From a virus (taxonomy: Duplodnaviria > Heunggongvirae > Uroviricota > Caudoviricetes), in the IMG/VR virus record IMGVR_UViG_3300012007_000011, positions 155 through 64,154 of that record: a DNA stretch of 64,000 nucleotides, one strand, 5' to 3'. The translations under genes and the position numbers were made by a program. The notes beneath the pieces were generated by a model. It saw only the letters and a program-made list of their open reading frames with translations. It was not told the DNA's origin and did no database searches. Positions 3,605 to 49,251 of this stretch are shown here, piece by piece; within the stretch, counting starts at the first letter, position 1; each line of letters opens with the position of its first letter.

Positions 3605-3857
3605 GATAAAGGATATAATTCTAACAATGATTGAGAACAACATGTTGGATAGTACACGTATCTTTGACAAAGAATATGTCTTGGAGAGAGTTAATTCATA
3701 TATTAAATCAGCCAACATGGTACGTTCAATGATGAACATGCCACTATTATAAAAAACACAAAAAATATGAAGTTTAAGAAGGCAATGTATATTTTCATAC
3801 TTTTTCTGTTATTGTAATATTTATAATAAAAAGAAATAATATTTTAACATTTAAAGT

Positions 3858-6678: not shown

Positions 6679-6936
6679 ATGAAAGAAGAAAAATATAAAA
6701 GAGCCGTTGAGATAAAAGATAAAATTTACTCATTACAGAAAAACCTTGAAGACTTAAAAGGCGGCCATTGGGACAAAACCCGTATCGAACTTAAAACAGG
6801 TTATTCCGACATGGGAATGGATTTTACGGTTTCAACAACATTTGACGAGGAAATTGGATATAAAATTCGTGATTTTATAAATGACACGATTAACAGTAAA
6901 ATTGCTGAATTGGAAAATGAGTTTGAAAATTTATAG
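6679..6936 (+). CDS. hypothetical protein (85 aa, coiled-coil)
   Basis: ORF. Confidence 0.4.
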   Translation: MKEEKYKRAVEIKDKIYSLQKNLEDLKGGHWDKTRIELKTGYSDMGMDFTVSTTFDEEIGYKIRDFINDTINSKIAELENEFENL

Positions 6937-6943
6937 GTATTTT

Positions 6944-7783
6944 ATGGAAAAGATAGAAAAATGGATACCACAAGTGGGTGATACTGTTAGGTTAAAAGGT
7001 ACTGAAAAGCCATTGTATCATTTATGTGGAATAACAAATTATGGTATGTTTTCATTTGTACAAGAAATGGAAAATGGTATTGCTGGTGGTGAGGTTTCTG
7101 AATATAGTTTACTTAGGAACTATGAACTTGTGGAACGCCCACAAAAATTAGAGGATTTCTTAAATGATATGATAACAAAGCCAATTTTGGAAAATATGAA
7201 TAAAACAAGATTTGAAAAATTTGGGAATGTGATGATAGATTTGGAAACACTATCAACGCACAACAATGCTGCCATTATAGAGATTGGTGCTGTTGAGTTT
7301 AATAAATATACGGGTGAGGTTGGCGAGAAGTTCAATGTAATTATTGACCCAAAGGATTGGTGTAAAAATGATAGACACGTTGACGGTGAAACAATTCAGT
7401 GGTGGTTTAACCAGACAAATGAAGCAAGAAAAAGATTTACACGCAAAAATAATGCGTATGTTACACTTAAGCAAGCGTTATGGCAATTGAGATATTTCAT
7501 TATGGATTGTGACACTGTTGATGATGATAAAGATGTTGTTGTATGGGGAAACGGTGCAACAATGGACATTAGCATATTAGAAAGTGCATTCAATTATTTC
7601 GACATAGAAGTACCTTGGAAATTTTGGGCAGTGAATGATGTAAGAACTATTGTTGACCTTAATCCGTCAATTAAGAAGAATTGTGAATTTGATTGTGGTG
7701 TTCGGCATAGTGCTATTGCTGATTGTCTCTATCAGATAAAATATACAACAGATACCATAAAATCATTAAAACTGAAATCATGA
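6944..7783 (+). CDS. DEDDh-family 3'-5' exonuclease (DnaQ-like)
   Basis: MIDLETLS (Exo I D.E), a conserved acidic motif, and HSAIADC (Exo III H...D). Start taken at the first ATG after the upstream stop. Confidence 0.65.
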   Translation: MEKIEKWIPQVGDTVRLKGTEKPLYHLCGITNYGMFSFVQEMENGIAGGEVSEYSLLRNYELVERPQKLEDFLNDMITKPILENMNKTRFEKFGNVMIDLETLSTHNNAAIIEIGAVEFNKYTGEVGEKFNVIIDPKDWCKNDRHVDGETIQWWFNQTNEARKRFTRKNNAYVTLKQALWQLRYFIMDCDTVDDDKDVVVWGNGATMDISILESAFNYFDIEVPWKFWAVNDVRTIVDLNPSIKKNCEFDCGVRHSAIADCLYQIKYTTDTIKSLKLKS

Positions 7784-11764: not shown

Positions 11765-11795
11765 TTTGTTAATTCACATTATTGAATTATATTTG
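11765..11795 (+). promoter_or_regulatory. Bacteroidetes-type promoter (TTTG-N19-TATATTTG)
   Basis: Motif match; ~100-nt leader before metK. Confidence 0.5.
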
Positions 11796-15773: not shown

Positions 15774-15805
15774 TTTGGTCATTTAAAAATAAATTCATAT
15801 TTTTG
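15774..15805 (+). promoter_or_regulatory. Bacteroidetes sigma-A type promoter (TTTG-N20-TATTTTTG)
   Basis: Motif and spacing match; TTTTAAC module upstream. Confidence 0.6.
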
Positions 15806-16543: not shown

Positions 16544-18055
16544 ATGAGAACAGTTTATTTAAAGAATTTTAGAAAGGGATTTGCTACAAACAGTAGTTCA
16601 ACTCATTCTGTCATATACCGTAATAAAGAGGATTTATTCAAAGATTTGGATATTTTTGAATTAAACTATTATGATAGATTTGACAATACGATTGCGGCTT
16701 CAAAAGAAGCAAAAATCAAGTATGTTGCAGCCAATATTATGTGGCATGACAAATTATATGAAATAATGTCGTTGTATTATCCACAGATGAATGAATACAA
16801 AGAACTTATCAAAGAAACCAAAAATAAAGAAACATTATATGGTGATGATGAAAAGTTTGGAATGTATGCAAGGGGTAGACTGTATTTCGGTAATAGTAAA
16901 TACTTGGAGGCAAGTATTGATTATCTTCGTAATGTTATAGATAATGACGATATAATCATAGTTGGTGGTTCTGATGAAACTGATTTTGTTTGGGAAACCA
17001 TTGAAGGACATAAAACATTACCGCAACCAGATGAAATAAATGACTACAATGATAACTGTAATATTGTTAAAAATGGAAATTATTGGGTTGGTTTTGGCTA
17101 TAATGGAAAAGTGAGATTTTCTAATAGTAACGATAAATGTATTCCGAGTTATCCGGAACTGATTGACTTGAAAATTACAAATCAGTGTGACCACGGATGT
17201 AATTTTTGCTACATGGATTCGAATATGCAAGGAAAACATGCAGATATTAATTTTCTTAAAAAAATCATTAGTAGATTGTCTTCAAATGACAGTAATACCT
17301 ATGACACACGTGTTGAATTTTCAATCGGTGGCGGTAATGTACTTTTGTATCCACATCTTGAAGAGTTGTTTAGTTTCATGAAGGAGAAAAGACATATCAT
17401 TAATACAACAATTAATGTTAAGGATTGTCAGAAAATCTTAAATGACTCTAACTTACTTAAAGTTTTTAAAAAATATGTCAATGGAATTGGTGTATCAGTA
17501 AATTCTGATGAAAACATTAACGATGTTAAAGAATTAAAGGAAAAATTGAATGACACAAGCAATTATCCTTATTACACTTATAAAGAGATTGTAATACATA
17601 TGATACCAGAACTTCTTGGCAGGGAAAAAACCAAAAATCTTTTGAAAAAACTTTATGATAATAATTTATATGACATACTTTTCCTTGGTTATAAGACAAA
17701 TGGACGTGGTGTGACACAAAAGCACAATAGGCTAACAAATGAAGATTTAAGTTATATTCTTGAAGATGCTTATAGTATAAATGTTGACACAACATTTGCG
17801 AATACATACAAAGATTGGCTGCAAAACAATTTTGATATTAAATATAGTATCACGTTTGATGAAGGCGAATATAGTATGTATATTGATGGCGTTACAGAAA
17901 ATGCTTACAAATCTTCTTATCAACTTGACAAACCATATAATCTGACTTGTACAACTATGAATTGGCAAGCAAAAAATAAAGAATGGTTCGAAGTAATAGA
18001 TGCATTCAAAAACATAAGAAAAGACAATGGTTTTGAAAATATAGAAAAAGAATAA
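16544..18055 (+). CDS. radical-SAM protein (503 aa) with a ~200-aa N-terminal extension
   Basis: CDHGCNFCY is a CX3CX2C radical-SAM cluster motif; Gly-rich IGGGNVLLYP SAM-binding motif. Confidence 0.6.
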   Translation: MRTVYLKNFRKGFATNSSSTHSVIYRNKEDLFKDLDIFELNYYDRFDNTIAASKEAKIKYVAANIMWHDKLYEIMSLYYPQMNEYKELIKETKNKETLYGDDEKFGMYARGRLYFGNSKYLEASIDYLRNVIDNDDIIIVGGSDETDFVWETIEGHKTLPQPDEINDYNDNCNIVKNGNYWVGFGYNGKVRFSNSNDKCIPSYPELIDLKITNQCDHGCNFCYMDSNMQGKHADINFLKKIISRLSSNDSNTYDTRVEFSIGGGNVLLYPHLEELFSFMKEKRHIINTTINVKDCQKILNDSNLLKVFKKYVNGIGVSVNSDENINDVKELKEKLNDTSNYPYYTYKEIVIHMIPELLGREKTKNLLKKLYDNNLYDILFLGYKTNGRGVTQKHNRLTNEDLSYILEDAYSINVDTTFANTYKDWLQNNFDIKYSITFDEGEYSMYIDGVTENAYKSSYQLDKPYNLTCTTMNWQAKNKEWFEVIDAFKNIRKDNGFENIEKE

Positions 18056-18413: not shown

Positions 18414-18445
18414 TTTGGTGGTATAGAATTATTTATCTATCTTTG
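18414..18445 (+). promoter_or_regulatory. Bacteroidetes sigma-A type promoter (TTTG-N20-TATCTTTG)
   Basis: Motif and spacing match. Confidence 0.6.
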
Positions 18446-21483: not shown

Positions 21484-22608
21484 ATGTTAATAAAGGAAAT
21501 GAAATATTCTTACAATGATATTGGCATTGTACCCGCTATCAAGAGTAATATTGAACATCGTTCAGAATGTAATCCGTTTACAGGACAATTCAACAATAGT
21601 GACTTACCAATATTCACTGCGCCAATGAGCACTGTTGTTAACGAGCAAAATTTTAACTTATTTGAAAAAAACCATATTATACCAATTCTTCCAAGAAACT
21701 TTGACCTTGAAACACGTATTGACTACCTCAGACGTGGAAAATGGGCTGCTGTTGGACTTCAAGAATTTGAAACCTTGTTTATAAACAATGATTGGGATAT
21801 GGAAATATATCCTGATGTTAATGTCCTTATTGATATTGCAAACGGTCATATGTCTAAGTTGCATTGTCTGATACATGATGCAAAAGTTAAGTATAAATGG
21901 TCACTCAGATTCAAGATTATGGCAGGTAATATCGCCAATCCAATGACATATTATGAACTTGCAAAGGCTGGATGTGATTACGTAAGGTTATCAGTTGGTT
22001 CGGGAAGTGGTTGCATAACAAGCACACTCACAGGTATCCATTATCCAATTGTTTCATTAATTGACGAAACATACAAGATTAAAAAGAAATTAGAACAGAT
22101 AGGTGAATGGCCACCGATGATTATTGCCGATGGTGGTATCAGGGATTATGATGATGTAAATAAAGCATTGGTTTCAGGTGCCGATTATGTTATGATTGGC
22201 GGTCTTTTCTCAAAACTTGTTGAAAGTGCTGCACCGACATTTTATTATGATAAAGACGGTGTTTCAATACATGAAATCAACCCGTTTGAACACAAGATTG
22301 ACGCATATTCTGATGGAACATTTGATATTGATGAGGAATATATAGTTGATAATCTTCATAAAGTATTCTATGGTATGGCTTCACGTAGAGGACAAGAGGA
22401 TATTAATGGGGAGAAAACGAAAACAAGCGAAGGGGTTGAAAAAATGTTTGATTGTACAACCAATCTGAGAAAATGGAGTGAAAACATGGTTACTTTTATG
22501 CAGTCAGCAATGAGTTACACAAATTGTATGTATCTTGGTGATTTCAATCCTGAAAATGTTGATTGCTGCATTATTTCCAATCAGACACAAGAATCAATTA
22601 ATAAATGA
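21484..22608 (+). CDS. guaC: GMP reductase-like IMPDH/GMPR-family oxidoreductase (no CBS insert)
   Basis: Collinear with GuaC throughout. PMSTVV matches ANMDTV; LIDIANGH matches CIDVANGY. The catalytic-Cys loop LSVGSGSGCITS matches VGIGPGSVCTT. IIADGGIRDYDDVNKALVSGADYVMIGG matches IVSDGGC..GDVAKAFGGGADFVMLGG. Confidence 0.65.
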   Translation: MLIKEMKYSYNDIGIVPAIKSNIEHRSECNPFTGQFNNSDLPIFTAPMSTVVNEQNFNLFEKNHIIPILPRNFDLETRIDYLRRGKWAAVGLQEFETLFINNDWDMEIYPDVNVLIDIANGHMSKLHCLIHDAKVKYKWSLRFKIMAGNIANPMTYYELAKAGCDYVRLSVGSGSGCITSTLTGIHYPIVSLIDETYKIKKKLEQIGEWPPMIIADGGIRDYDDVNKALVSGADYVMIGGLFSKLVESAAPTFYYDKDGVSIHEINPFEHKIDAYSDGTFDIDEEYIVDNLHKVFYGMASRRGQEDINGEKTKTSEGVEKMFDCTTNLRKWSENMVTFMQSAMSYTNCMYLGDFNPENVDCCIISNQTQESINK

Positions 22609-24049: not shown

Positions 24050-24361
24050 ATGATGAAAGAAAAACAGATTTCAGAATCAATACTTAAACTTAAGTTATTA
24101 AAAGAAAGGTTTAATGAGAGACAACGTATTCAAGAAAAAAGTAGAAATGATTTAAAAAGGTATGAAAATCTTGATAAACAATATCCAGAACATAAATATG
24201 TAGAAAATTATATAAGATACCTTGAACAAATTGTTTTTGAAAATAAGGTACTTCTTAATGCTTTGCAAAAACAGTGCCTTGATATTAAGAAAAAAATCAA
24301 AAAATTGAATAAGGAACAAAATATTAGAAACAATAAAAAGTTAGAAAAACATGACAAATAA
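24050..24361 (+). CDS. coiled-coil small protein (~103 aa)
   Basis: First ATG downstream of the promoter; the ORF-track start at 24026 is a TTG inside the -7 box. Confidence 0.45.
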   Translation: MMKEKQISESILKLKLLKERFNERQRIQEKSRNDLKRYENLDKQYPEHKYVENYIRYLEQIVFENKVLLNALQKQCLDIKKKIKKLNKEQNIRNNKKLEKHDK

Positions 24362-26126
24362 CATTTTTACAAAGAGTGATTCGTTCAAGAGTGAGTACTG
24401 TTGCAGTATCATCCGTGTGGGTGAAGTAAAACCAATTGAGGGTAAGGACAAAATTGGCTACACTCTTGTCAATGGTGAGACAATTGTGGTACGTAAAGAC
24501 CAAATTAAAGAAGGTGATGTTTTGCTTTATGCAAGCAATGAAACACAACTTGACAAGGATTTCCTTGGAGCAAACAATCTTTTTGAAAGTTCTTCATACC
24601 AACTTAATAGTAATGCAAATGAGATTGAACCTTATATTTTAAAGAATAAGGAACTTAAGGCAGAAGCAGAAAATCTTGAAAAGGTAATAAAGAAACTTTT
24701 TGTTTGTTCTAAGTTCTTGATTGGCTATGATAGTGCTGTTATTGCAGCAGGAGACAATGAGGAAGAGAAGAGTGAGTTGGAAACTCGTCTTAATAATTCA
24801 CGCAAGACAATAAGTAAGTATATAGGTGGTAGTTTTAATGAGGATAGCACACTAATAGACTATGTGACAACAGCACAGAAATATTGTGCTGAGAAGAAAA
24901 CACAACTTGATATTATTAAAAAAGAAATTGATGAAACCACTGCTTATATTCGTGGACATGTAGGATTTTTTAATAAGACTGGACGTGTCCGCTCAATTCG
25001 TCTTGGTGGTGTACAATCAATGGGTTATCTTTTCACTCTTGATGAACTTGCAAAGTATAATCCCAATGTCAAAAATATTTCTCTTAACCAATATGTTGGG
25101 GAGGATTTTGATACAATTGAAGACAAACTGTTTATCAAGGCATATGTTCCCTTTGTGCCTGAACGCAGACAAGTCTCAAAGGTGGAAAAGAGAAATAAGA
25201 AAATTGAACAGTTTGACCGTATGGTGAAAGGTGAGTTTTCTTTCCATTATGATACTGCACCACTTCCAAAGTGTATCGGAAGACTAAAGCCAAGTGATGT
25301 CGTAACAATAACAAGCAAGTTACATGGAACTTCAATTTGTATTGGTAAACTCCACGTTAAGACACCAATTAAACTTCCATTCTATAAGTGGATTTGGAAT
25401 AAGTTTGTTGACTTGACAGGACTTTTCAAGGCACATCGTATTACCGATTATGTTATTGATTACGGTAATGTCACTGCTTCACGTACAGTAATCAAAAACC
25501 AATATATCAATGAAAATGTCTCTGACGGATACTATGGTGTTGATGTATGGTCTGAGTATGGTAATCTCATTTATCCTTTCCTTTCTGAAGGAATGATTAT
25601 CTATGGTGAAATCATTGGTTATCTCACTGATAGTGATAAGATGATTCAGAAGAATTATGACTATGGCTGTAATAAGGGTAAAAACAAACTCATGATATAT
25701 CGTATCACTACAAATAATGAAGATGGAACGAAGCATGAGTGGAATGTAACAGAAGTTAAGGAATGGACTGAGAAACTTGTCAAAGACCATCCAGAAATTG
25801 CTGATAGAATCCATGTTATTGACTTGTTGTATCATGGCACACTTGCAGACCTTTATCCAAATATTTCTTATATGGACCATTGGCATGAAAATGTCCTTGA
25901 GGCATTGAGAAATGAAAAGGAACGTTTCAATATGGAGAAAAATGACCCAATCTGTAAGAATAAAGTTCCATTTGAGGGGGTCGTTCTAAGAATTGATAAT
26001 GATGAGTTTGCAGAAGCATTCAAACTTAAATGTGCAAAATTCCTTTCTAAAGAAAGAGAGGAAATTGACAAGGGAGAAGTTGATATGGAAATGCTTGATA
26101 ACTACGGAAATAATGAGGGAGTATAA
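24351..26126 (+). CDS. ATP-dependent RNA ligase (Rnl2-type nucleotidyltransferase) with an N-terminal tRNA-binding OB (Myf/Trbp111-like) domain
   Basis: N-terminal IIRVGEVKPIEGKDKIGYTLVNGETIVV matches the tRNA-binding-domain consensus (vG.v....HP.ADKL.v..vd.G....iv). Ligase motifs: I SKLHGTS (KxHGxN), III YGEIIG, IV FEGVVLR, V KLKCAKF. Confidence 0.6.
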   Translation: MTNNIFTKSDSFKSEYCCSIIRVGEVKPIEGKDKIGYTLVNGETIVVRKDQIKEGDVLLYASNETQLDKDFLGANNLFESSSYQLNSNANEIEPYILKNKELKAEAENLEKVIKKLFVCSKFLIGYDSAVIAAGDNEEEKSELETRLNNSRKTISKYIGGSFNEDSTLIDYVTTAQKYCAEKKTQLDIIKKEIDETTAYIRGHVGFFNKTGRVRSIRLGGVQSMGYLFTLDELAKYNPNVKNISLNQYVGEDFDTIEDKLFIKAYVPFVPERRQVSKVEKRNKKIEQFDRMVKGEFSFHYDTAPLPKCIGRLKPSDVVTITSKLHGTSICIGKLHVKTPIKLPFYKWIWNKFVDLTGLFKAHRITDYVIDYGNVTASRTVIKNQYINENVSDGYYGVDVWSEYGNLIYPFLSEGMIIYGEIIGYLTDSDKMIQKNYDYGCNKGKNKLMIYRITTNNEDGTKHEWNVTEVKEWTEKLVKDHPEIADRIHVIDLLYHGTLADLYPNISYMDHWHENVLEALRNEKERFNMEKNDPICKNKVPFEGVVLRIDNDEFAEAFKLKCAKFLSKEREEIDKGEVDMEMLDNYGNNEGV

Positions 26127-26371: not shown

Positions 26372-26469
26372 TTGTTTTAAGAAAATTTAACATAGAATAT
26401 TTTGTTATATTATTTTTTTATATTATTTTTGCAACTGTAAATGAGAATGGTTCAAAAATAAACTTTAAT

Positions 26470-26964
26470 ATGGAAAAAGATTTGACAATAGTTTCTTCTA
26501 AAACCGCAAAAGAATTAAAAGACTTCGGTTTTGATATTATTTGTCCTAACTGTTATGGTGTGGCTGTAATGCATAATGGTGAATATCTTGGGTGTGATGA
26601 AGAATATGAACTTCGTGCCGAAGGACGTGGTGATGAAATCGAATACATCGACTACGGAATGCTATATAATATGTGGTTTAAGAATAATGATAAAGAAGAC
26701 CACGATGTATGTGCGGCACCAGATATTGAAATTGTAAGGAAATGGTTTAGAGATAAATATAGTATTCATATTACCGCAATGCCATATATAACTGTTGAAG
26801 GATGTTTTTGGCTATCTGAAGTTTACACTTATAATGATGTAATGTATAATAAATTGCCACTGACAACAATGGTATGTGAGACATATGAAGAAGCCATTGA
26901 AAAAGGTATTAATAAAACAGTAAATTATCTTAAAGAGAAAGAAAAAGAAGATGAAACATTATGA
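26470..26964 (+). CDS. hypothetical protein (164 aa)
   Basis: ORF after a TTTTGCAACTG promoter at ~26435. Confidence 0.45.
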   Translation: MEKDLTIVSSKTAKELKDFGFDIICPNCYGVAVMHNGEYLGCDEEYELRAEGRGDEIEYIDYGMLYNMWFKNNDKEDHDVCAAPDIEIVRKWFRDKYSIHITAMPYITVEGCFWLSEVYTYNDVMYNKLPLTTMVCETYEEAIEKGINKTVNYLKEKEKEDETL

Positions 26965-27631
26965 TTCAATACCACGCATTCAAGATGATGGAACACTTCT
27001 TGGTTGTGATATTTGGGCATTTAACAAACTTGACGGACAAAATTTTTGTGTTAACTATTCTCCAAAAACAAAGGAGTTTAAAAATTTTGGCAGCAGAACT
27101 GTAATGGTTGATGAGACTTCTGACCAATTTGGTGATACGGTTCGTTATTTTAAAACAAGTAATATTCCAGATACACTTAAAGAAATCATTAAACAAAATA
27201 GTGGTAAAGGAAAAATTTTCAAGGGGATAGATGAAATAACTTTTTATTTTGAGTGGTATGGAGAACATTCCTTTGCAGGTAGGCATGACGAAAATGATAC
27301 GATGCATCTTGCGTTGATTGATGTCTTTTTGAAAAAGAAAGGTTATATTGAACCAAAGGATTTTTATGAAATTTTCGGTCAGAATGACAATATAGAAACA
27401 CCAGACTTGATTTATCATGGAAAATTAACAAAGGAGTTTATCAATGATATTTGGAACAACGAGGTAGGAAATGAAAACGCCCAATATCCAAGTGTGAAAG
27501 AAGGTGTTGTTTGCCGTAATAGCCATTTGTTAAAGGGACAGAGAATGCCAAAGGTCAAATTTAAGACAAAATGGTGGATTGACAAACTCCATTCAATGTA
27601 TAGCGAGGAAGAATGTAAAAAATTAGAATAA
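26951..27631 (+). CDS. minimal ATP-dependent ligase (nucleotidyltransferase domain only, 226 aa)
   Basis: Motifs I NKLDGQN (KxDGxN), III EWYGEH, IV KEGVVCRN, V KVKFKTK. Confidence 0.55.
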   Translation: MKHYDSIPRIQDDGTLLGCDIWAFNKLDGQNFCVNYSPKTKEFKNFGSRTVMVDETSDQFGDTVRYFKTSNIPDTLKEIIKQNSGKGKIFKGIDEITFYFEWYGEHSFAGRHDENDTMHLALIDVFLKKKGYIEPKDFYEIFGQNDNIETPDLIYHGKLTKEFINDIWNNEVGNENAQYPSVKEGVVCRNSHLLKGQRMPKVKFKTKWWIDKLHSMYSEEECKKLE

Positions 27632-30428: not shown

Positions 30429-30460
30429 TTTGGTCATTTAAAAATTTTACACTAATTTTG
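30429..30460 (+). promoter_or_regulatory. Bacteroidetes sigma-A type promoter (TTTG-N20-TAATTTTG)
   Basis: Motif and spacing match. Confidence 0.6.
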
Positions 30461-30486: not shown

Positions 30487-31017
30487 ATGACTTGGTTTAA
30501 TATTTTATTTTTTAGCGTTTTTGCTATCCTATTTCTAAAATCATTTATATCATGGGTTATAGGTGATGTTGATGTGGATATTGATTTTGATGGTGACACT
30601 GATATTGATGTAAGTGGAATGTTGTCCTTTAAAGGTATGTTACATTTCTTATTGGGCTTCTCATCAGTTCTAACGGCTGTTGGTTATGAGAATACACATT
30701 CATTAGCCATACCGTATACATTCTCTCTAAGCACTTATATTTTCGCTGTATGCGTTGGAATCGTAATGATGGTATCATTGTTCTACTTATACAAATTTAT
30801 GCTTAAATTAAACCATTATACAAGTGATAACCCAAATTTAAATAATACGAATGGTAAAATATATTTGATTGATGGTGACGGACAATATCAAGTGTTGGTA
30901 GACACGCCAAATGGTACATTCAAAAAGACAGCATATTCAGAAAACAAGAATCACAAAATTGGTGAGGATATTATATTGAAATGGGATGAGGAAAATAAGA
31001 GATATTTTTTTAATTAA
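30487..31017 (+). CDS. YqiJ/NfeD-like membrane protein (partner of an SPFH protein)
   Basis: N-terminal TM segment, acidic DVDVDIDFDGDTDIDV repeat as in YqiJ (DUF1449), 2 further TM segments, and a C-terminal OB-like soluble domain. Confidence 0.55.
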   Translation: MTWFNILFFSVFAILFLKSFISWVIGDVDVDIDFDGDTDIDVSGMLSFKGMLHFLLGFSSVLTAVGYENTHSLAIPYTFSLSTYIFAVCVGIVMMVSLFYLYKFMLKLNHYTSDNPNLNNTNGKIYLIDGDGQYQVLVDTPNGTFKKTAYSENKNHKIGEDIILKWDEENKRYFFN

Positions 31018-31043
31018 TTAACTTTTAAAATTTATAACAAAAA

Positions 31044-32966
31044 ATGGAAACAGGAACAATTATTAGTTTGGTATTGATTGCAGTTGCTGCAATAGTTGTA
31101 ATTGGAACTATTTGGGGGCTTCTTTCACGTTATCGGAGGTCTGCACCTGATGAGTTGCTGGTTGTCTTTGGTAAGGCGGGAAAGATGAAGACTGAAGATG
31201 GTAAGACAATTGTGACACCCTCAAAGATTATTCAAGGTGGTGGTGCATTTGTGTGGCCAATTATTCAAGACTTCAAGAAAATGTCAATGAAGCCTATTCA
31301 GATTAAGGTTAATGTTGACGGTATTGATTCACAGGCGATTCCTATGCATTTGCCAGTTGTATTGACTACTGCAATTTCGCAAGACAAACTTATTCAGCAA
31401 AATGCTGCAACACGTTTTTTGAGTGCTAACCCTGCCGAGGTTGAACGACAGATTTCTGAGATTTTGGTTGGTGAGACACGTGCTATCATGGCAACAATGC
31501 TTATTGAGGAAATCAATGCAGACCGTAACACATTCTTGGGTAAGGTCCGTGAATCACTTGAACAAGAGTTAACCAAGGTTGGTTATGAACTTACCAATAT
31601 TAACATTTCAGAAATTACGGATGATGCAGATTATATCCGCAATATGGGTAAGAAAGCAGCAACCAAGGCAAAGGCTAATGCTGAAGCAGATATTGCCGAG
31701 CAGACCAAGCAAGGTAATGTAAAGATTGCCAATACTCGCAAGGAAGAGGAAATTGCAGTATCACAAGCAGAGCGTGACAAGCAGATTAGTGTTAACCAAG
31801 CAAAGCAGGAACAAGAGGTAAAGGTTGCCGAGATTAACCGAGAAAAGGAAATCAAACTTGCAGAAGCCGATAAGGAGCGTGAGTCTGGTATTGCTCTCCA
31901 AGAGGCTGAAAAGGTAGCCAATATTGCAAGGGCTAATGCTGATGCAGAGTCTAAAAAGGCCGAATATGAAGCACTTCAGACAAAGAACATTGCAAAGGCA
32001 GAAGCCGATGCCGAAGCCGCACAGAATGAGGCAGAAGCACAAAAGCAAGTACGTATTGCCAAAGCAAAGCAGGAACAAGAGGCTGAGACTATTAAGGCAA
32101 CACAGGAAAAGGAAGCAAAGGCCGCTGAGTATGAATCAAACAAACGTCAGCGCAAGGCAGAACAGGACAAGTTGGCTGGTGTTGCAGAGCAGGAAGCAAA
32201 GATTGATGTTGCCAAGGCACGTGCCAAGGCAGGACAAGCAGAAGCAGATGCTGTAAAGGTATCAGAGACCGCAAAGGTAGAGGCAGAAATGTCAGTTGCA
32301 AAGACACGTCAAGAACGTCAGTTGGAGGTAAATCAAGCAGAGGCAAAGGCACAGGAAGCAAAACTGAGAGCAACTGAGATTGTACCGGCAGAGAAGGCAA
32401 AGGAAAAGGCTGTGATTTTCGCAGAAGCCACAAAGAAGAAGGCTGAATTGGAAGCAGAAGCAACAAAGGCTAAGATTCTTCGTGAAGCAGAGGCAGAAGC
32501 AGAGAAAATCCGTTTGGCTAAGAATGCAGAAGCAGAGGGTGAAAAGAACATCCTTATGGCACAGGCAGAAGGTAAGAGGGCATCATTACTTGCAGAAGCA
32601 GAAGCTGAGCAGCAAAAAGCACTTGCAGAAGCAATGGCGTTTGAATATATGATTAAGGCTTCTGGAAGCCCTGATATGGCTGTTCAGTGGAAGATGGTTG
32701 ACCAATACAAGGGTATTGCGGAAGCACAGGCACACGCACTTGAACATATCAATTTGGGTAATGTGACGGTATGGGGGTCCGAAAATACGGGAGCATCTTT
32801 TGCAAGTAGTTTTGTAAAGAATTTCGCCCCGGTTCTTGCAACAATTAATTCGGAAGTTAAAGACCAATTTAAAGATTTGTTTGGAATTGCTAAAAATAAA
32901 GAAGAGGTAAAAGCTGTTGAAGATAAAAGTAAAGAATCTGAGAATAATTTTGAAAATGTAGATTGA
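31044..32966 (+). CDS. flotillin-like SPFH (band-7) protein, YqiK-like
   Basis: N-terminal TM segment, SPFH domain (PDELLVVFGKAG...WPIIQDF...), then a ~350-aa Ala/Glu/Lys/Gln-rich coiled coil typical of flotillin/YqiK. Confidence 0.75.
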   Translation: METGTIISLVLIAVAAIVVIGTIWGLLSRYRRSAPDELLVVFGKAGKMKTEDGKTIVTPSKIIQGGGAFVWPIIQDFKKMSMKPIQIKVNVDGIDSQAIPMHLPVVLTTAISQDKLIQQNAATRFLSANPAEVERQISEILVGETRAIMATMLIEEINADRNTFLGKVRESLEQELTKVGYELTNINISEITDDADYIRNMGKKAATKAKANAEADIAEQTKQGNVKIANTRKEEEIAVSQAERDKQISVNQAKQEQEVKVAEINREKEIKLAEADKERESGIALQEAEKVANIARANADAESKKAEYEALQTKNIAKAEADAEAAQNEAEAQKQVRIAKAKQEQEAETIKATQEKEAKAAEYESNKRQRKAEQDKLAGVAEQEAKIDVAKARAKAGQAEADAVKVSETAKVEAEMSVAKTRQERQLEVNQAEAKAQEAKLRATEIVPAEKAKEKAVIFAEATKKKAELEAEATKAKILREAEAEAEKIRLAKNAEAEGEKNILMAQAEGKRASLLAEAEAEQQKALAEAMAFEYMIKASGSPDMAVQWKMVDQYKGIAEAQAHALEHINLGNVTVWGSENTGASFASSFVKNFAPVLATINSEVKDQFKDLFGIAKNKEEVKAVEDKSKESENNFENVD

Positions 32967-32986
32967 GTTTACATTTGAAATCTTAA

Positions 32987-33021
32987 AAGATGGTGGACTA
33001 TTAGTGTATTCCACCATCTTT
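32987..33021. terminator. bidirectional terminator hairpin overlapping the 3' end of the - strand gene
   Basis: AAAGATGGTGGA..loop..TCCACCATCTTT. Confidence 0.4.
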
Positions 33022-33996
33022 CTTGTATTTAATGTCATATAACATTTCGTTTAAATCTGCATAATATGTGTGTTTATTTTTAAAAGTAGTTGGTACATTT
33101 TGGTCAGTGAAATAAAAAACATCAATACCATGTTCTTTGCATTGTTTAAATTTTAATTCATCTCGTTCTATTAATTCGTTAAATGTAAATATTTTTGTTT
33201 CTGTTGAAATGTTTGAAGAAAATGACGTTGCTTGAAAATGTTGTATTCCTTGACATTCAATTGCACTGTTATATTCCGGTAAATAAAAATCTAATTTCAT
33301 ATTAGTTTTATTTTTTAACCATTTAAACGTCTTTTCTTCAATAAAATATATTTTATTCTCTGACAAAAAATTAGATAAATATTTTTCAAGTTTTGATTTT
33401 TGACACTTTGGACAACCATTTCCTTGTAAATGTTTGTCTGGTGTTTGCCAAAACTCACCATGTTCTGGACATATGATACATACCTTTGTTTTGTTATTAA
33501 TATAATTTACGTTAGAATAATCATACAGGTTGTTATGTATATATTTTGCTTTCTCTATAAAAGTATTATTGTTTGAGGCTAATTTTTGTTTGTATTTTAT
33601 TTTTCCACATTCAGGACATCCGCAACCTCTGATATGTGAATTTGCTTCTTGCCAAAATTCACCATGTTCTGGACATATGATACAAACCTTTTTAGTGTTA
33701 TCAATATAGATTGTCTTAGAATAATCGTATTTGTTATTATGCACCCTTTGTGCTTCTTTAATAAAATCTTCATTTGTTTTGGTTAAACGCTTTTTATGGT
33801 TTTCGTATTTACATTTTCTACATCCTTTACCACTTAAATGGCAATTTGGCGTTTGCCAAAACTCTCCGTGTTCGGGACATATGATGCACACCTTTGTTTT
33901 ATTGTTAACATATTCCACCTTTGAATAATCATACTTGTCACCATGTACTTTTCTTGCATGTTCTATAAATTCCTCTGTTGTTACTCTTTGTTGCAT
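33001..33996 (-). CDS. homing-endonuclease-like protein: 3 zinc-ribbon modules plus a Vsr/PD-(D/E)XK-like C-terminus (paralogue of 3858..5000)
   Basis: The same repeat signature (YDYSKVEY.NN.TKVCIICPEHGEFWQ..H..G.GC..C) three times, and a C-terminal LDFYLPEYNSAIECQGIQHF. Start taken at the ATG at 33996 (the track start is a GTG at 34002). Confidence 0.6.
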   Translation of the reverse strand: MQQRVTTEEFIEHARKVHGDKYDYSKVEYVNNKTKVCIICPEHGEFWQTPNCHLSGKGCRKCKYENHKKRLTKTNEDFIKEAQRVHNNKYDYSKTIYIDNTKKVCIICPEHGEFWQEANSHIRGCGCPECGKIKYKQKLASNNNTFIEKAKYIHNNLYDYSNVNYINNKTKVCIICPEHGEFWQTPDKHLQGNGCPKCQKSKLEKYLSNFLSENKIYFIEEKTFKWLKNKTNMKLDFYLPEYNSAIECQGIQHFQATSFSSNISTETKIFTFNELIERDELKFKQCKEHGIDVFYFTDQNVPTTFKNKHTYYADLNEMLYDIKYKKDGGIH

Positions 33997-34003
33997 AATC
34001 ACA

Positions 34004-34174
34004 TCACTTGTTGTTAATTATATTATCAATATCCTCAATTCTATATTTCCGTCTGTTTGTCGGTGTGCGTACAGATTTCAATTTACCCCATTTGTCCCAA
34101 TTTCTTAAAGTTTGCTGTGTTACACCTAATATTTTGGCTGTCTCTTTAATTCCAAGTAAAGATTCGTTTGTCAT
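34004..34174 (-). CDS. small MerR/excisionase-type helix-turn-helix protein (56 aa)
   Basis: MTNESLLGIKETAKILGVTQQTLRNWDKWGKLKSVRTPTNRRKYRIEDI matches the MerR-N/Xis HTH pattern (..LGVS..TLR.WE..GLL.P.R...G.R.Y...D). Its stop overlaps the start of the endonuclease gene. Confidence 0.5.
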   Translation of the reverse strand: MTNESLLGIKETAKILGVTQQTLRNWDKWGKLKSVRTPTNRRKYRIEDIDNIINNK

Positions 34175-34251
34175 ATTTTTATAATTTTTGTTATTTATTT
34201 ATAATAAATATAATGTTTTTATAGTTTTTTTCAATTTTTAACATCAATATT

Positions 34252-34282
34252 TTTGCCGACTAAAATATTTGTATTATATTTG
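34252..34282 (+). promoter_or_regulatory. Bacteroidetes sigma-A type promoter (TTTG-N19-TATATTTG)
   Basis: Motif and spacing match. Confidence 0.55.
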
Positions 34283-37373: not shown

Positions 37374-38183
37374 ATGGAAACATTAAAGGAAAAATGTCAA
37401 GAGTTAAGAGCAAAATATGATGTCAGTATGCCAAAGAAAACATACGCAATGGCAATGATTGATGGTAAGAACTTTTCACGTCTTATTAAAAACAAATATG
37501 AAAAACCATTTGATGATAAATTCATTAATATGATGAATGAAGTGGCAATTTATGTTTGCAAGAACGTACAAGGTTGCAAATTCGCATATACACAATCAGA
37601 TGAAATTACATTTGTTCTAACTGATTTTGAAAACGAAGAAACAAGTGCATATTTTGATTATCGTTTATGCAAAATGTTATCAATTATACCGTCACTTGCA
37701 ACGGCAAAGTTTAACCAATTGGTAACATTGAATCTGCTTGATACACCTTGTTCAACAGAAGACATGAAACAAATCATCAAACATATGTCGCTTGCACAAT
37801 TTGACTGCAAAGTGTGGAATACAGATAACTTTAATGATGTGTTTGCATATTTCCTTTGGAGGCAGATAGATTGTGTGAGAAATTCAAAACAACAAGCAGC
37901 ACAAACATATCTTTCGCATAAAGAACTTATGGGAAAACATACAGATGAACAAATTAGACTGTTGTTCGAAAAGAAAGGAATTGATTGGAACGAATATTCT
38001 GATGATAAAAAATACGGACGTTTCATATATAAGGAACAAATCGAAAAGCCATTACCAAATCATGAAGAGAATACATGTCTGAGAAATGTGTGGCTTGCGC
38101 ACGATGCGTTTGAATTATACGAAAGTGGTGGAAAACAAAGACTTTTGGAACTTGGTGTCATTCCGATTAAGATTATTGAATAA
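37374..38183 (+). CDS. Thg1-like protein (tRNA-His guanylyltransferase family 3'-5' nucleotidyltransferase)
   Basis: AMAMIDGKNFSRL matches Thg1 VVRIDGKKFHEFS. YEKPFDDKF matches FAKPNDENA. KFAYTQSDEITFVL matches ILAFGESDEYSFIL. The catalytic D (in IDG) and SDE acidic residues are conserved. Confidence 0.6.
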   Translation: METLKEKCQELRAKYDVSMPKKTYAMAMIDGKNFSRLIKNKYEKPFDDKFINMMNEVAIYVCKNVQGCKFAYTQSDEITFVLTDFENEETSAYFDYRLCKMLSIIPSLATAKFNQLVTLNLLDTPCSTEDMKQIIKHMSLAQFDCKVWNTDNFNDVFAYFLWRQIDCVRNSKQQAAQTYLSHKELMGKHTDEQIRLLFEKKGIDWNEYSDDKKYGRFIYKEQIEKPLPNHEENTCLRNVWLAHDAFELYESGGKQRLLELGVIPIKIIE

Positions 38184-38383: not shown

Positions 38384-40126
38384 TTATCCTTCAGAAGTGC
38401 TTGCATTTTCAAGAGCGGTAACTCTTTGTGTAAGTTCGTCTATTTTATTTAATAATGAATTAATTGATGAAAGATTTGTTTCTACTCTCGTATTCAAGTC
38501 ATTTAATGAAGAAGAAATAACAAGTTCATCGTCTTCCATATCATTTCTTAATGTTTGAATATTTGCTTCTACATTTGCGATTTGAGTATTTTTCAAATCT
38601 TCAATTCTATCATTCAAGTCATTTAATGAAGAAGATACAACAAGTTCCAAATCATCAATACCCTCATCGAAATCAGTCATTCTTTCATTAATGGTAGTGA
38701 ATTGATTTGTGGTGTTGGTACTCAATTCTTCAATTCTTGTGTTGAGGTCATTAAGTGAAGCAGAAACTGTATGTTCGATTTCGTCAAACTGATTGTCAAC
38801 TTCTGATTTGGTATACGTATCTACCTTATCTGCTTTTGTTTCAAGTGTTGAATTAATTGCTTCATCTGCGGCAGTTCTTGCAGCAATTTCTTCATTCACA
38901 ACTGTTTGTGTTGCAAATGTACTATCAGCAGTTGTCTTGTCGTAATAATTTGCAGGATTGAAGATGTCTGTAAGTGCAATTGAGATTGGTTCTTGACCCG
39001 CATCAGTATTGAAAGTAATGACAAGATTACCTTCTGAAATCTCAACATTTGATACCATACCATCCTTAATGAAGTTAGTTGCATCAATTGTCGCAATTAC
39101 ATCAAGCCCATTTCTAAAAATGATTTCTTTGCTATTTGAATCATATCTTACATTATCAAAGAAATTAGAAGTTAAATCATTTACTTCTTGTTTGGTGTAT
39201 GTTTCGTCATTATGTTTTATGATACGAGTGTTAAGGTCATTGAGTGCGGCAGAGATAACAAGTTCGTTATCGTCAATTCTCTGATTTACTTCATCAAATT
39301 TAGCATTTGTTTCTTCTGCTTGTGTTTCACTATTGTTTGACAATTCATCAATTCTGCTGTTCAAGTCATTTAATGAAGAAGATACAACAAGTTCCAAATC
39401 ATCGATACCTTTATTAAATTCTTCTGCCTCATCATCAATTCTTTGGTTTATGGCATCTATTTTAGAATTAATATCTTCAAATGCAGCGTCTGAATCTTCA
39501 TCTAATTCTCTTATTCTTGTATTCAAGTCATTTAATGAAGAAGAAATAACAAGTTCAAGTTTTTCAACATTTTCGTCAAAAGTATCAAACCTGTTATCGA
39601 CACTTTCGCTGAGATTGTCAATTTTATTATTAAGTTCTTCATATCTTGCATTTCCGCCACCGTCAATATCATTAATTCTATCATTTAAATCATTAAGTGC
39701 GGCAGAGATAACAAGTTCGTTATCGTCAATATTCTTAGCGTTTTCCTCACTAATATCATTGAGTTTGTCAATTTTTTCTTCAAGTTTGGAAATACTTTCA
39801 ATTCTATCATTCTTTTCTTGTCCTAAAGCACTGGAAATTATTTCTTGGGCTTGGAAAAATTCATTTTCATTAACAAAACCAACAATTTCATCTTCTGAAT
39901 TTTTAATTGAGAGTGTTTCATGCCCTTTTAGATAGTTGACAGCAATTTCACCTTCGATAAGATTATCTTTGGTTGGAAGTTTTGGAAATTTGACTTTAAT
40001 AGGAGAACTACCTTCCGCATCACTATTATCTACTGTTGGTGTCAAACCATAAAACTCTTCAGGATTAATATTTTCTTTTGGGAGTTTACTTTTAATGTGA
40101 GATACGTGTTCAAAATTTTTTGCCAT
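38384..40126 (-). CDS. tail-fibre-like repeat protein (580 aa)
   Basis: At least 9 degenerate ~40-aa repeats with the core (D/N).ELV(I/V)S(S/A)(S/A)LNDLN.RI..L (coiled-coil/beta-helical fibre-like); low-complexity Asn/Asp/Glu-rich. Confidence 0.5.
   Translation of the reverse strand: MAKNFEHVSHIKSKLPKENINPEEFYGLTPTVDNSDAEGSSPIKVKFPKLPTKDNLIEGEIAVNYLKGHETLSIKNSEDEIVGFVNENEFFQAQEIISSALGQEKNDRIESISKLEEKIDKLNDISEENAKNIDDNELVISAALNDLNDRINDIDGGGNARYEELNNKIDNLSESVDNRFDTFDENVEKLELVISSSLNDLNTRIRELDEDSDAAFEDINSKIDAINQRIDDEAEEFNKGIDDLELVVSSSLNDLNSRIDELSNNSETQAEETNAKFDEVNQRIDDNELVISAALNDLNTRIIKHNDETYTKQEVNDLTSNFFDNVRYDSNSKEIIFRNGLDVIATIDATNFIKDGMVSNVEISEGNLVITFNTDAGQEPISIALTDIFNPANYYDKTTADSTFATQTVVNEEIAARTAADEAINSTLETKADKVDTYTKSEVDNQFDEIEHTVSASLNDLNTRIEELSTNTTNQFTTINERMTDFDEGIDDLELVVSSSLNDLNDRIEDLKNTQIANVEANIQTLRNDMEDDELVISSSLNDLNTRVETNLSSINSLLNKIDELTQRVTALENASTSEG
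38479..39760 (-). repeat. intragenic near-identical DNA repeats (35-50 bp) in the fibre gene
   Basis: tattcaagtcatttaatgaagaag(a/at)a(t/c)aacaagttc recurs at ~38484, 38610, 39360 and 39520; ttaaggtcattgagtgcggcagagataacaagttcgttatcgtcaat recurs at ~39228 and ~39686. Confidence 0.8.
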
Positions 40127-40344: not shown

Positions 40345-40375
40345 TTTGTAATTTCTAAAAATTATCTTATATTTG
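40345..40375 (+). promoter_or_regulatory. Bacteroidetes sigma-A type promoter (TTTG-N19-TATATTTG)
   Basis: Motif and spacing match. Confidence 0.55.
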
Positions 40376-43331: not shown

Positions 43332-43363
43332 TTTGGACTTTTCAAAAATACGTATTATCTTTG
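43332..43363 (+). promoter_or_regulatory. Bacteroidetes sigma-A type promoter (TTTG-N20-TATCTTTG)
   Basis: Motif and spacing match. Confidence 0.6.
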
Positions 43364-48506: not shown

Positions 48507-48538
48507 TTTGGTTGTTCCAAAAATATGTATTATCTTTG
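48507..48538 (+). promoter_or_regulatory. Bacteroidetes sigma-A type promoter (TTTG-N20-TATCTTTG)
   Basis: Motif and spacing match. Confidence 0.6.
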
Positions 48539-49159: not shown

Positions 49160-49190
49160 ATATGGGACAATATATTGTCCCATATTTTTT
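49160..49190 (+). terminator. rho-independent terminator
   Basis: ATATGGGACAATA/TATTGTCCCATAT palindrome followed by T6. Confidence 0.7.
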
Positions 49191-49251
49191 GTTATATTAA
49201 CATTTTGCATTATATTTGTAAAAGATAATATAAAGTTATATAATTTTACAA

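Follow-up and report, generated by a model that had tools for sequence, protein, structure and literature searches.

SPFH/NfeD operons are found throughout prokaryotes and are poorly understood, and the deletion of bacterial SPFH genes often gives weak phenotypes (PMC13086221). The NfeD partner was defined by three hydrophobic stretches and an all-beta OB domain, and by an operon with an SPFH2 gene, although sequence similarity is very weak (PMC2636767). Human flotillin is assembled into a 44-mer dome which delimits a 30-nm membrane domain (PMC13000311), and E. coli QmcA-YbbJ forms a cage of 26 heterodimers, NfeD being proposed to promote SPFH oligomerisation (PMC13086221). Phage-encoded flotillins were also known before, and "flotillin family protein" is already a GenBank annotation in phages. 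Such genes are carried by csAssE-Sib (OR575929) and Vibrio phage KIT04 (LC487410), phage GIB1 carries an SPFH gene of unclear role (PMC13239085), and the SPFH "lipoprotein" family PHROG 200 is another phage-encoded SPFH group. None of these four has been functionally characterised, and the literature searches turned up no work on the function of such a pair (flotillin and NfeD) in phages.

In this study, two adjacent genes were analyzed in a 64,000-nucleotide stretch of an IMG/VR phage record, the whole of which is called the window below. The upstream gene encodes a small membrane protein (hereafter S) and the downstream gene a flotillin-type protein (hereafter F).

Organization and transcription of the locus

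The features of the locus, all on the plus strand, were as follows.

30429 to 30460, plus strand: promoter-like element of Bacteroidota type (TTTG, 21 nt, TAATTTTG), recognised by sequence and pattern count
30487 to 31017, plus strand: S, predicted NfeD-like membrane partner of 176 aa
31018 to 31043, plus strand: A/T-rich S-F spacer of 26 bp
31044 to 32966, plus strand: F, flotillin-type SPFH protein of 640 aa

The start codon of S was located 27 bp downstream of the end of the promoter-like element. No promoter or terminator motif was detected in the S-F spacer and the promoter-like element was present upstream of S only, so S and F are probably co-transcribed as one unit from a Bacteroidota-type promoter. 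The pattern TTTG-N17-23-TAnnTTTG, which we take to reflect the Bacteroides sigma-A promoter consensus, occurred 27 times in the window compared to 8.0 ± 2.6 expected, and none of 100 shuffles reached 27. The scans for sigma-70 promoters (30 vs 22.6 expected) and intrinsic terminators (2 vs 2.9 expected) gave nothing informative. A "phage promoter" had been proposed before the pair in the first-pass annotation; a promoter-like element was indeed found upstream of S, but its motif was of the host (Bacteroidota) type and not phage-specific.

F is a flotillin-type SPFH protein

The regions of F were delimited as listed, the boundaries of the helices being rough.

Residues about 5-28: N-terminal transmembrane or anchor helix, followed by an invariant RYRR
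Residues 35-221: SPFH domain (Pfam Band_7)
Residues about 195-441: predicted very long helix CC1 (low-confidence AF2 model)
Residues 442-449: conserved IVPAE hinge
Residues 450-540: predicted CC2 (low-confidence AF2 model)
Residues 544-612: C-terminal cap-like region, followed by a disordered linker
Residues 636-640: conserved C-terminal tail F-E-x-V-[DK]

Pfam Band_7 (PF01145) matched F over residues 35-221 with E=4.9e-23 (82.5 bits, cut-off 23.6), and the match was found in all 14 clade members. The sole NCBIfam match was the FloT model (E=2.6e-44), whose score of 152 bits was far below the equivalog cut-off of 700 bits. The best matches of F in the PDB were human flotillin-2 (E=6e-21) and flotillin-1 (E=1e-18). 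A hydrophobic segment (residues 1-30) precedes RYRR, and Ala, Glu and Lys accounted for 56% of residues 195-540. The AF2 monomer model, with a pLDDT of 54.7, was used for secondary structure only and not for fold search; together with the hydrophobic N-terminal segment, it suggested the layout of a flotillin, in which a membrane anchor and the SPFH domain are followed by a long coiled coil and then by a cap region at the C-terminus. These profile and sequence matches identify F as a flotillin-type SPFH protein, and the earlier description of a flotillin-like protein with a long Ala/Glu/Lys coiled coil was borne out.

The Pfam Flot domain (PF15975) did not match F of the window even at E<=10, and among 14 aligned phage proteins only that of csAssE-Sib was matched. 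The Bacteroidales orthologs of F also matched Flot (E=4e-7). Since the corresponding region of phage F is colinear with theirs, the Flot domain in phage F looks like a diverged rather than an absent one.

S has the architecture of a short NfeD protein

The elements of S were assigned as follows.

Residues 3-25: predicted transmembrane helix TM1
Residues D27-D41: acidic alternating loop with a DxDxDG core, in which D31, D33, D35, G36 and D39 are invariant
Residues 48-70: conserved helix 2, SFKGxLHFxxGF
Residues 81-108: predicted transmembrane helix TM3
Residues 121-174: predicted C-terminal five-stranded OB fold

The AF2 model of S (pLDDT 80.6) comprised three helices (3-25, 48-70 and 81-108) and a five-strand beta domain. 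Two of the helices were strongly hydrophobic and the middle one, helix 2, only moderately. As modelled, S thus combines about three N-terminal hydrophobic stretches with a C-terminal all-beta OB fold, and its gene lies directly upstream of an SPFH gene on the same strand with a gap of 26 bp. No ClpP protease domain is present, which indicates the short NfeD form. The structural top match of S in BFVD was annotated in UniProt as "NfeD-like C-terminal domain-containing protein" and covered the full length (31% identity, E=4e-14), and in fold comparison generic OB folds scored as high as or higher than NfeD domains.

Searches of S against Pfam (E<=10), NCBIfam, PHROGs and PADLOC gave nothing significant; the best profile match, a crAss tail hub (E=0.03), was judged spurious. 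Pfam NfeD (PF01957) did not match S at E<=10 and was reached by 2 of 66 diverse S relatives (best E 6e-5), while the Paludibacteraceae ortholog gave E=0.0016 and 19.1 bits against a cut-off of 29.1. The family profile of S had zero matches among PDB sequences at E<=10. We conclude from the modelling that S is built like an NfeD protein, with membrane helices and a C-terminal OB fold, and that its link to Pfam NfeD is structural and transitive. Of the first-pass reading of S as NfeD-like with an OB domain, the helices and the OB fold were thus upheld by the model and BFVD, and a direct match to Pfam NfeD was not obtained.

The more specific assignment of S to YqiJ/DUF1449 was not supported. Pfam YqiJ_N (PF21001) and YqiJ_OB (PF07290) matched E. 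coli YqiJ with E=1e-15 and 2e-14, but neither matched S or any of the 66 diverse relatives. Comparison of the S family with the single YqiJ sequence by hhalign gave a probability of 0.3%, and comparison with a YqiJ family alignment, consisting of Enterobacteriaceae only, gave 16% (E=0.0016), the aligned region being TM3 and the OB domain, which are topologically equivalent in both. The acidic D-x-D repeat, which had been taken as a YqiJ feature, is absent from E. coli YqiJ; it marks instead a distinct NfeD-like family common to Bacteroidales and their phages.

The pair is homologous to a Bacteroidales chromosomal operon

For S, homology with the upstream gene of the bacterial pair was detected at E=6e-16 and 6e-13, and F aligned with the Bacteroidales flotillin over residues 9-602. 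The S-upstream-of-F pairing was present in the Bacteroidales genomes examined, such as Phocaeicola vulgatus ATCC 8482 (locus L038, 2427-2960 and 2986-4686) and Bacteroides finegoldii (locus L032), and in many Bacteroidales the orthologs formed ordinary chromosomal operons beside housekeeping-looking genes. These alignments show that each gene of the pair has its homolog in a Bacteroidales chromosomal operon. In a tblastn search of 185,579 species genomes, the closest cellular homologs of F were from the presumed host order and only 37-39% identical, so that the comparison with host copies requested by the first reading of the locus spoke against host contamination. In trimmed alignments, F was about 39-41% and S about 24-30% identical to the bacterial copies.

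Among phages, 10 distinct loci were examined, and in each of them S preceded F on the same strand. The F query was the more productive in locus scans; the scan with the S alignment was dominated by the common DxDxDG pattern and returned two loci only. The pair recurred with the same phage genes beside it on independent ENA, JGI and Logan contigs and on IMG/VR contigs of up to 376 kb. The neighbour-joining trees of S and F were congruent, with a monophyletic jumbo-phage clade as sister to Bacteroidales, and dN/dS was 0.12 for S and 0.06 for F. In a clade of large uncultivated phages from gut or rumen, the two genes have stayed together and are under purifying selection. The pair is probably a diverged copy, acquired long ago from Bacteroides-type bacteria which the phage probably infects, and the promoter motifs and the gene phylogeny independently support a Bacteroidota host. 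The pair of csAssE-Sib was nested inside Bacteroidales, its F being 65-69% identical to bacterial copies compared with 42% to F of the window, which indicates a separate and more recent capture. By this phylogenetic evidence, at least two lineages of gut phages acquired the operon independently of each other.

When 8-kb and 25-kb pieces of the window were compared by megablast with 50,697 deposited phages, no meaningful match was obtained. The GC content of about 30%, the relatives on 362.7-kb and 376-kb contigs and the Bacteroidota host signal form a circumstantial case that the window belongs to the Jug phages. Flotillin, SPFH and NfeD are not mentioned in the text of the paper describing these phages (PMC12880540).

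Proposed function and alternative explanations

The explanation we favour, and regard as reasonably probable, is that the phage has its own copy of the prokaryotic NfeD-SPFH2 (flotillin) operon, derived from a host, which is transcribed as a single unit and acts in membrane homeostasis or takeover. By analogy with the solved SPFH cages of human flotillin and QmcA-YbbJ, F would be anchored by its N-terminal helix, oligomerise at the inner membrane of the host on the cytoplasmic side, and build a large dome fencing off a membrane patch. S would lie in or at the rim of this patch, where it would bind F through its OB domain and promote or tune the assembly. The acidic DxDxDG loop of S, which is of the D-hydrophobic-D type and strictly conserved, may bind either divalent cations or a basic partner, for example the RYRR belt that is invariant in F. 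According to the published regression of subunit number on CC1 length, y = 0.1782x + 10.22 (PMC12624060), a CC1 of about 245 aa would correspond roughly to 54 subunits compared to about 42 for the shorter Bacteroidales proteins, an extrapolation beyond the fitted range with the CC1 length taken from the model of pLDDT 54.7. The likeliest benefit to the phage would be that the host flotillin system is replaced or overridden, with the membrane and its protein machinery kept both organised and intact during a long jumbo-phage infection, and the role would not be structural or lytic. This benefit is hard to predict, because bacterial SPFH deletions so often show weak phenotypes. The entire two-gene operon was taken from Bacteroidales by phage lineages which are unrelated, and one abundant jumbo-phage clade retained and remodelled it under strong purifying selection. 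Such capture and retention suggest a measurable fitness benefit during infection, and infection is thus a setting in which a phenotype could be sought.

Independent capture also suggests a generic benefit, which speaks for superinfection exclusion or defence, one of the roles suggested in the first-pass annotation, in which the flotillin cage and its partner would remodel the inner membrane and block the DNA ejection or membrane-dependent steps of competing phages. Exclusion proteins are typically small membrane proteins, and a predicted membrane pair with a host-type promoter is compatible with early expression. However, S, F and two neighbouring proteins had no PADLOC match (E<=0.01), the bacterial orthologs form ordinary chromosomal operons unlike the cargo of defence islands, and the literature search found no exclusion role for any flotillin/NfeD pair, so that we regard exclusion as rather unlikely.

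A role as proteostasis helper was rated slightly lower. The pair would stabilise unfolded or newly inserted membrane proteins, either of the phage or of the stressed host machinery, without ATP. There is a precedent in S. aureus FloA-NfeD, for which stabilisation of unfolded proteins in stress conditions was reported by Ukleja et al. 2024, as cited in PMC13086221, and membrane proteins like the Ca2+ P-type ATPase of the Jug-type phages, which the window resembles, could be clients. But F is of the long FloT/YqiK type, FloT being its sole NCBIfam match, rather than the short FloA type. Any client would be hypothetical, and such a role would refine the favoured homeostasis reading rather than exclude it.

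More speculative, and in our estimate improbable, is a reading in which the pair goes beyond a housekeeping scaffold borrowed from the host and forms a membrane compartment which the phage has customised and which divalent cations regulate; it would bring together a putative Ca2+ loop, the enlarged dome, the tail and a P-type ATPase. When S is compared with an EF-hand/DxDxDG Ca2+ site, its invariant residues D31-x-D33-x-D35-G36-x-x-D39 fall on positions 1, 3, 5, 6 and 9. The loop might serve as a Ca2+ sensor or gate within a flotillin dome of larger size (~54 or more subunits), and the clade-specific F-E-x-V tail of F might recruit a phage partner. Jug-type gut jumbo phages encode large membrane proteins, e.g. 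a Ca2+ P-type ATPase (PMC12880540); the pair could work jointly with this Ca2+ exporter to control ion flux or to set up a protected zone of the membrane while infection proceeds.

It is very unlikely that the pair sets the timing of lysis, with S as a holin-like or antiholin-like protein corralled by F into rafts that determine the moment of permeabilisation. The small S with two or three membrane helices bears a superficial likeness to class I holins, and the holin match of its Parabacteroides ortholog (PF16080, E=0.0043) was below threshold (17.5 bits, cut-off 28.8) and covered one TM helix only. Unlike holins, S has a conserved OB domain and chromosomal orthologs paired with flotillins, and profile searches of the neighbouring genes gave methyltransferases and RNA-repair enzymes but no endolysin or spanin. 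An assembly artefact, that is, a Bacteroidales flotillin operon mis-joined to a phage contig, as the host-order origin of the nearest cellular homologs might suggest, was refuted by the low identity of the best bacterial F (37-39%) and S (about 24-30%), by the recurrence of the pair with its flanking phage genes on the independent ENA/JGI/Logan and IMG/VR contigs, and by the GC content at the pair (0.36), which is near the window-wide range of 0.28-0.36.

Comparison with known systems

The operon logic of the pair is that of E. coli yqiJ-yqiK, in which a membrane protein with a C-terminal OB fold is followed by a long coiled-coil flotillin, and the earlier reading of a yqiJK-type architecture held, the order of an NfeD-like gene and then a flotillin gene being the same as in yqiJK and yuaFG. 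The E. coli gap is also 26 bp, which is a coincidence. Over about 490 aa, F and YqiK shared 26% identity (E=2e-17), whereas sequence comparison of S with YqiJ gave nothing significant. B. subtilis YuaF-YuaG (NfeD2-FloT) and P. horikoshii NfeD/stomatin, for which OB domains have been solved (2k14, 2exd, 3wwv and 3cp0), show three hydrophobic stretches and then an all-beta domain, like S. Among phages, csAssE-Sib carries an S-F pair as in the window, while in Vibrio phage KIT04 the gene before the flotillin encodes a membrane protein of 82 aa that lacks an OB domain.

The closest known system is the Bacteroidales operon, in which both genes are found in the order and relative orientation seen in the phage, about 20-30 bp apart. 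Its small protein has, in the same order as S, the alternating acidic loop, S-F-K-G..H-F..G-F, TM3 and the OB domain. Differences were found in F: the Bacteroidales protein matches Pfam Flot and the phage protein does not, and phage F has extra residues inserted into an SPFH loop, a CC1 extended by about 70-130 aa, a CC2 with 22 residues more, and the conserved F-E-x-V-[DK] tail, which the bacterial proteins do not have. In S, the strict DxDxDG loop was found in 33 of 33 phage sequences and was confined to the jumbo-phage clade. The acidic D-x-D loop and the SFKG..HF..GF helix in this way define an NfeD-like family which is missed by current Pfam models and occurs in major Bacteroides and Phocaeicola species of the human gut.

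Genomic setting of the S-F pair

The first-pass annotation had placed an NfeD-like membrane protein gene (S) and a flotillin-type SPFH gene (F) at 30487-32966, and both open reading frames were present exactly there on the same plus strand, separated by a gap of 26 bp. The features of the window were as follows.

Features of the window
30487-31017, plus strand, S, 176 aa
31044-32966, plus strand, F, 640 aa
29912-30409, 165-aa gene directly upstream of S, no family match
33001-34002, minus strand, HNH/treble-clef homing endonuclease in the insertion after F (PHROG 559, E=1e-64)
34004-34174, minus strand, 56-aa MerR/excisionase-like HTH protein in the same insertion
3858-5000, second endonuclease, also PHROG 559
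38384-40126, minus strand, 580-aa coiled-coil-rich protein, against the prevailing plus direction
16544-18055, Fe-S oxidoreductase/radical-SAM-like gene (PHROG 16999, E=2e-31), metabolic-looking
21484-22608, dehydrogenase gene (PHROG 9582, E=9e-53), metabolic-looking
4966-6375, 6881-7783, 24351-26126, 26951-27631 and 37374-38183, scattered RNA-repair-type genes: polynucleotide kinase/ATPase, Rv2179c-like 3'-5' exoribonuclease, RNA ligase(s) and Thg1-like tRNA-His guanylyltransferase

Profile searches revealed the gene set of a typical large phage, including 2 HNH homing endonucleases, 2 DNA methyltransferases, an RNA ligase, a polynucleotide kinase, a Thg1-like enzyme and an Rv2179c-like exoribonuclease. 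The GC content was about 31%, no tRNA genes were found in the window, and no close relative was detected among 50,697 deposited phage genomes. The RNA-repair genes could serve to mend tRNAs cut by host anticodon nucleases, and the two metabolic-looking genes are possible auxiliary metabolic genes. Right after F (32,980-34,190), about 1.2 kb of inserted DNA, missing in the 95%-identical relative L004, looked like a mobile homing-endonuclease cassette. For the 580-aa protein, the Pfam matches were only of low-complexity type (SF-assemblin, apolipoprotein), and a shorter minus-strand gene (361 aa) occupied the equivalent position in L004. The 165-aa gene upstream of S was 81% identical in the related loci L004-L006 by tblastn, with matches confined to the closest relatives and none in more distant pair-carrying phage loci; therefore, it probably lies outside the S-F module.

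Small membrane protein S

No significant match to S was obtained in Pfam (to E<=10), NCBIfam, PHROGs or PADLOC, and its family profile found nothing among PDB sequences. An AF2 model from 33 homologs was confident (pLDDT 80.6). It placed helices at 3-25, 48-70 and 81-108 and left the acidic loop (26-41) disordered, while residues 121-174 formed a beta domain of five strands; the hydrophobicity of helix 2 was only moderate. The top match in the viral structure library covered the full length (E=4e-14, 31% identity) and was labelled 'NfeD-like C-terminal domain-containing protein' in UniProt. The exhaustive profile search gathered 365 clusters at 50% identity, and among 66 diverse members Pfam NfeD was reached by 2 (best E=6e-5) and the Pfam YqiJ models by 0. 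As published, NfeD proteins combine three stretches of hydrophobic residues with a short hydrophilic one and an all-beta OB domain, and their genes share operons with SPFH1/2 genes although sequence similarity is very weak (PMC2636767). S fits this description.

The acidic loop (residues 27-42 of S read DVDVDIDFDGDTDIDV) carried strict DxDxDG in 33/33 phage-clade members, with D31, D33, D35, G36 and D39 invariant across the clade, matching positions 1, 3, 5, 6 and 9 of an EF-hand/DxDxDG calcium loop. In the wider family the loop alternated acidic and hydrophobic residues, lacked basic ones and had a net charge between -6 and -9. Its period-2 alternation would be just as compatible with an amphipathic acidic beta-hairpin.

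Flotillin-like protein F

Pfam Band_7 matched F at residues 35-221 (E=4.9e-23), and the sole NCBIfam match, to the flotillin model FloT (E=2.6e-44), scored 152 bits, far short of the equivalog cut-off of 700 bits. The closest solved structures were the human flotillin-2 (E=6e-21) and flotillin-1 (E=1e-18) chains of cryo-EM flotillin complexes. The AF2 model was of low confidence (pLDDT 54.7) and was taken for secondary structure only. In it, an N-terminal anchor helix leads into an alpha/beta SPFH domain, followed by helix CC1 (about 195-441), the conserved IVPAE hinge and helix CC2 (450-540), and then by a C-terminal region and a disordered tail. Ala, Glu and Lys made up 56% of residues 195-540. 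The Pfam C-terminal Flot model did not match F even at E<=10, whereas it matched the orthologs of Bacteroidales and of the deposited phage csAssE-Sib, with which the C-terminal region of F was colinear in alignment. The missing match is read as probable divergence rather than loss of the region.

Conservation, origin and selection

Close relatives in ENA, JGI and Logan assemblies had S and then F on one strand, with the same flanking genes; this arrangement of the pair was also found on IMG/VR viral contigs of 58-376 kb, and the nearest relatives additionally lay on a 362.7-kb contig. A scan of cellular genomes, each representing one of 185,579 species, found no close copy of F. The best cellular matches were flotillins of Bacteroides, Phocaeicola, Parabacteroides and Prevotella/Xylanibacter (37-39% identity), followed by Gemmatimonadota, Planctomycetota and Capnocytophaga (30-33%). 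Each of these Bacteroidales flotillin genes had a 164-177-aa gene upstream bearing the S signature (FFGD-I-D-V-D-I-D-G-D...SSLVSFKGLVHFGIGFG), whose products were homologous to S (E=6e-16 and 6e-13).

The neighbour-joining trees of S and F were congruent, with a monophyletic jumbo-phage clade sister to Bacteroidales and the csAssE-Sib pair (OR575929) nested within Bacteroidales. The csAssE-Sib F shared 65-69% identity with bacterial copies versus only 42% with the window. These placements mean that gut phages captured the whole operon at least 2 times independently, once long ago and once more recently. A host-contig chimera was excluded. Between the window and its 95%-identical relative, dN/dS was 0.12 for S and 0.06 for F, similar to neighbouring genes; both are under purifying selection.

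In four related loci a conserved ORF of about 55 aa with a single TM segment lay between the two genes:
L009, 5618-5788
L010, 5781-5945
L011, 5623-5793
L013, 5535-5699

This ORF, confined to one subclade of related phages and absent from the window, may be a third membrane component. The same position in L007, another related locus, held a 156-aa repeat protein with a signal-peptide-like N-terminus.

Expression signals and host

Sigma-70 and terminator scans were uninformative. The 78-bp region upstream of S contained TTTG, 21 nt and TAATTTTG, which matches the Bacteroides -33/-7 promoter consensus. TTTG-N17-23-TAnnTTTG occurred 27 times in the window versus 8.0 +/- 2.6 expected (about 3.4-fold; 0/100 shuffles reached 27), mostly on the coding strand immediately 5' of ORF starts. 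One copy ended 27 bp before the S start codon; other examples were:
2065-2095, 11765-11795, 15774-15805, 18414-18445, 26401-26431
34252-34282, 40345-40375, 43332-43363, 48507-48538, 49188-49218

As the motif precedes S and is missing from the gap between the genes, S and F look to be co-transcribed by host-type RNA polymerase as a bicistronic unit, and the enrichment suggests that much of the region is so transcribed. It also points independently to a Bacteroidota host, in agreement with the Jug gut jumbo phages (360-402 kb, 27-30% GC, Bacteroides/Phocaeicola hosts, many split genes; PMC12880540). That paper makes no mention of flotillin, and the case for placing the window in the Jug group is circumstantial.

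Discussion

The identity, pairing and origin of S and F and the selection on both were established here. By analogy with solved SPFH assemblies, F would build a dome attached to the cytoplasmic face of the membrane; human flotillin is a 44-mer defining a 30-nm domain (PMC13000311). S would join the dome via its OB domain, as in the QmcA-YbbJ cage of 26 heterodimers, and NfeD was proposed to promote oligomerisation (PMC13086221). From the published regression of subunit number on CC1 length (y = 0.1782x + 10.22; PMC12624060), the window F (CC1 about 245 aa) would extrapolate roughly, outside the fitted range, to about 54 subunits versus about 42 for the shorter Bacteroidales proteins.

The most likely benefit to the phage would be a host inner membrane maintained or reorganised through a long infection. 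Superinfection exclusion is a candidate rival role, and the PADLOC search gave no matches; proteostasis is another. Lysis timing is a third, and profile searches found no lysis genes among the neighbouring genes.

The functional analogy to E. coli yqiJ-yqiK drawn by the first-pass annotation holds, and F shared 26% identity with YqiK over about 490 residues; the 26-bp gap, also found in E. coli, is coincidental. The YqiJ family label was dropped, because E. coli YqiJ is matched by Pfam YqiJ_N and YqiJ_OB and S by neither, and the acidic D-x-D repeat, taken earlier as a YqiJ feature, is absent from YqiJ itself. Hhalign gave the S family 0.3% probability against YqiJ and 16% (E=0.0016) against a 20-member YqiJ alignment, the aligned part being the equivalent region, TM3 and OB.

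In the T5-like Vibrio phage KIT04 (L002, LC487410; genes 3689-3937 and 3938-5359), the partner directly upstream of the flotillin family protein has 82 aa and three hydrophobic helices, without the OB domain. This pair, with its partner truncated, may have been taken up by a phage on a third, independent occasion.

A few phage proteins are already labelled 'flotillin family protein' or 'NfeD-like' in GenBank/UniProt, therefore the S-F pair is not a new kind of system. The literature search yielded no study on the function or evolution of an NfeD/flotillin pair in a phage, and a 2026 paper stated that the reason for an SPFH gene in a phage 'remains unclear' (PMC13239085). Compared to the bacterial proteins, jumbo-phage F has an SPFH-loop insertion, a CC1 about 70-130 aa longer, 22 additional residues in CC2, and a conserved C-terminal F-E-x-V-[DK] tail beyond a variable linker, and CC1 indels of roughly 22 residues separate the phage lineages. 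The S-F pair is well delimited, with some clade-specific elaborations.
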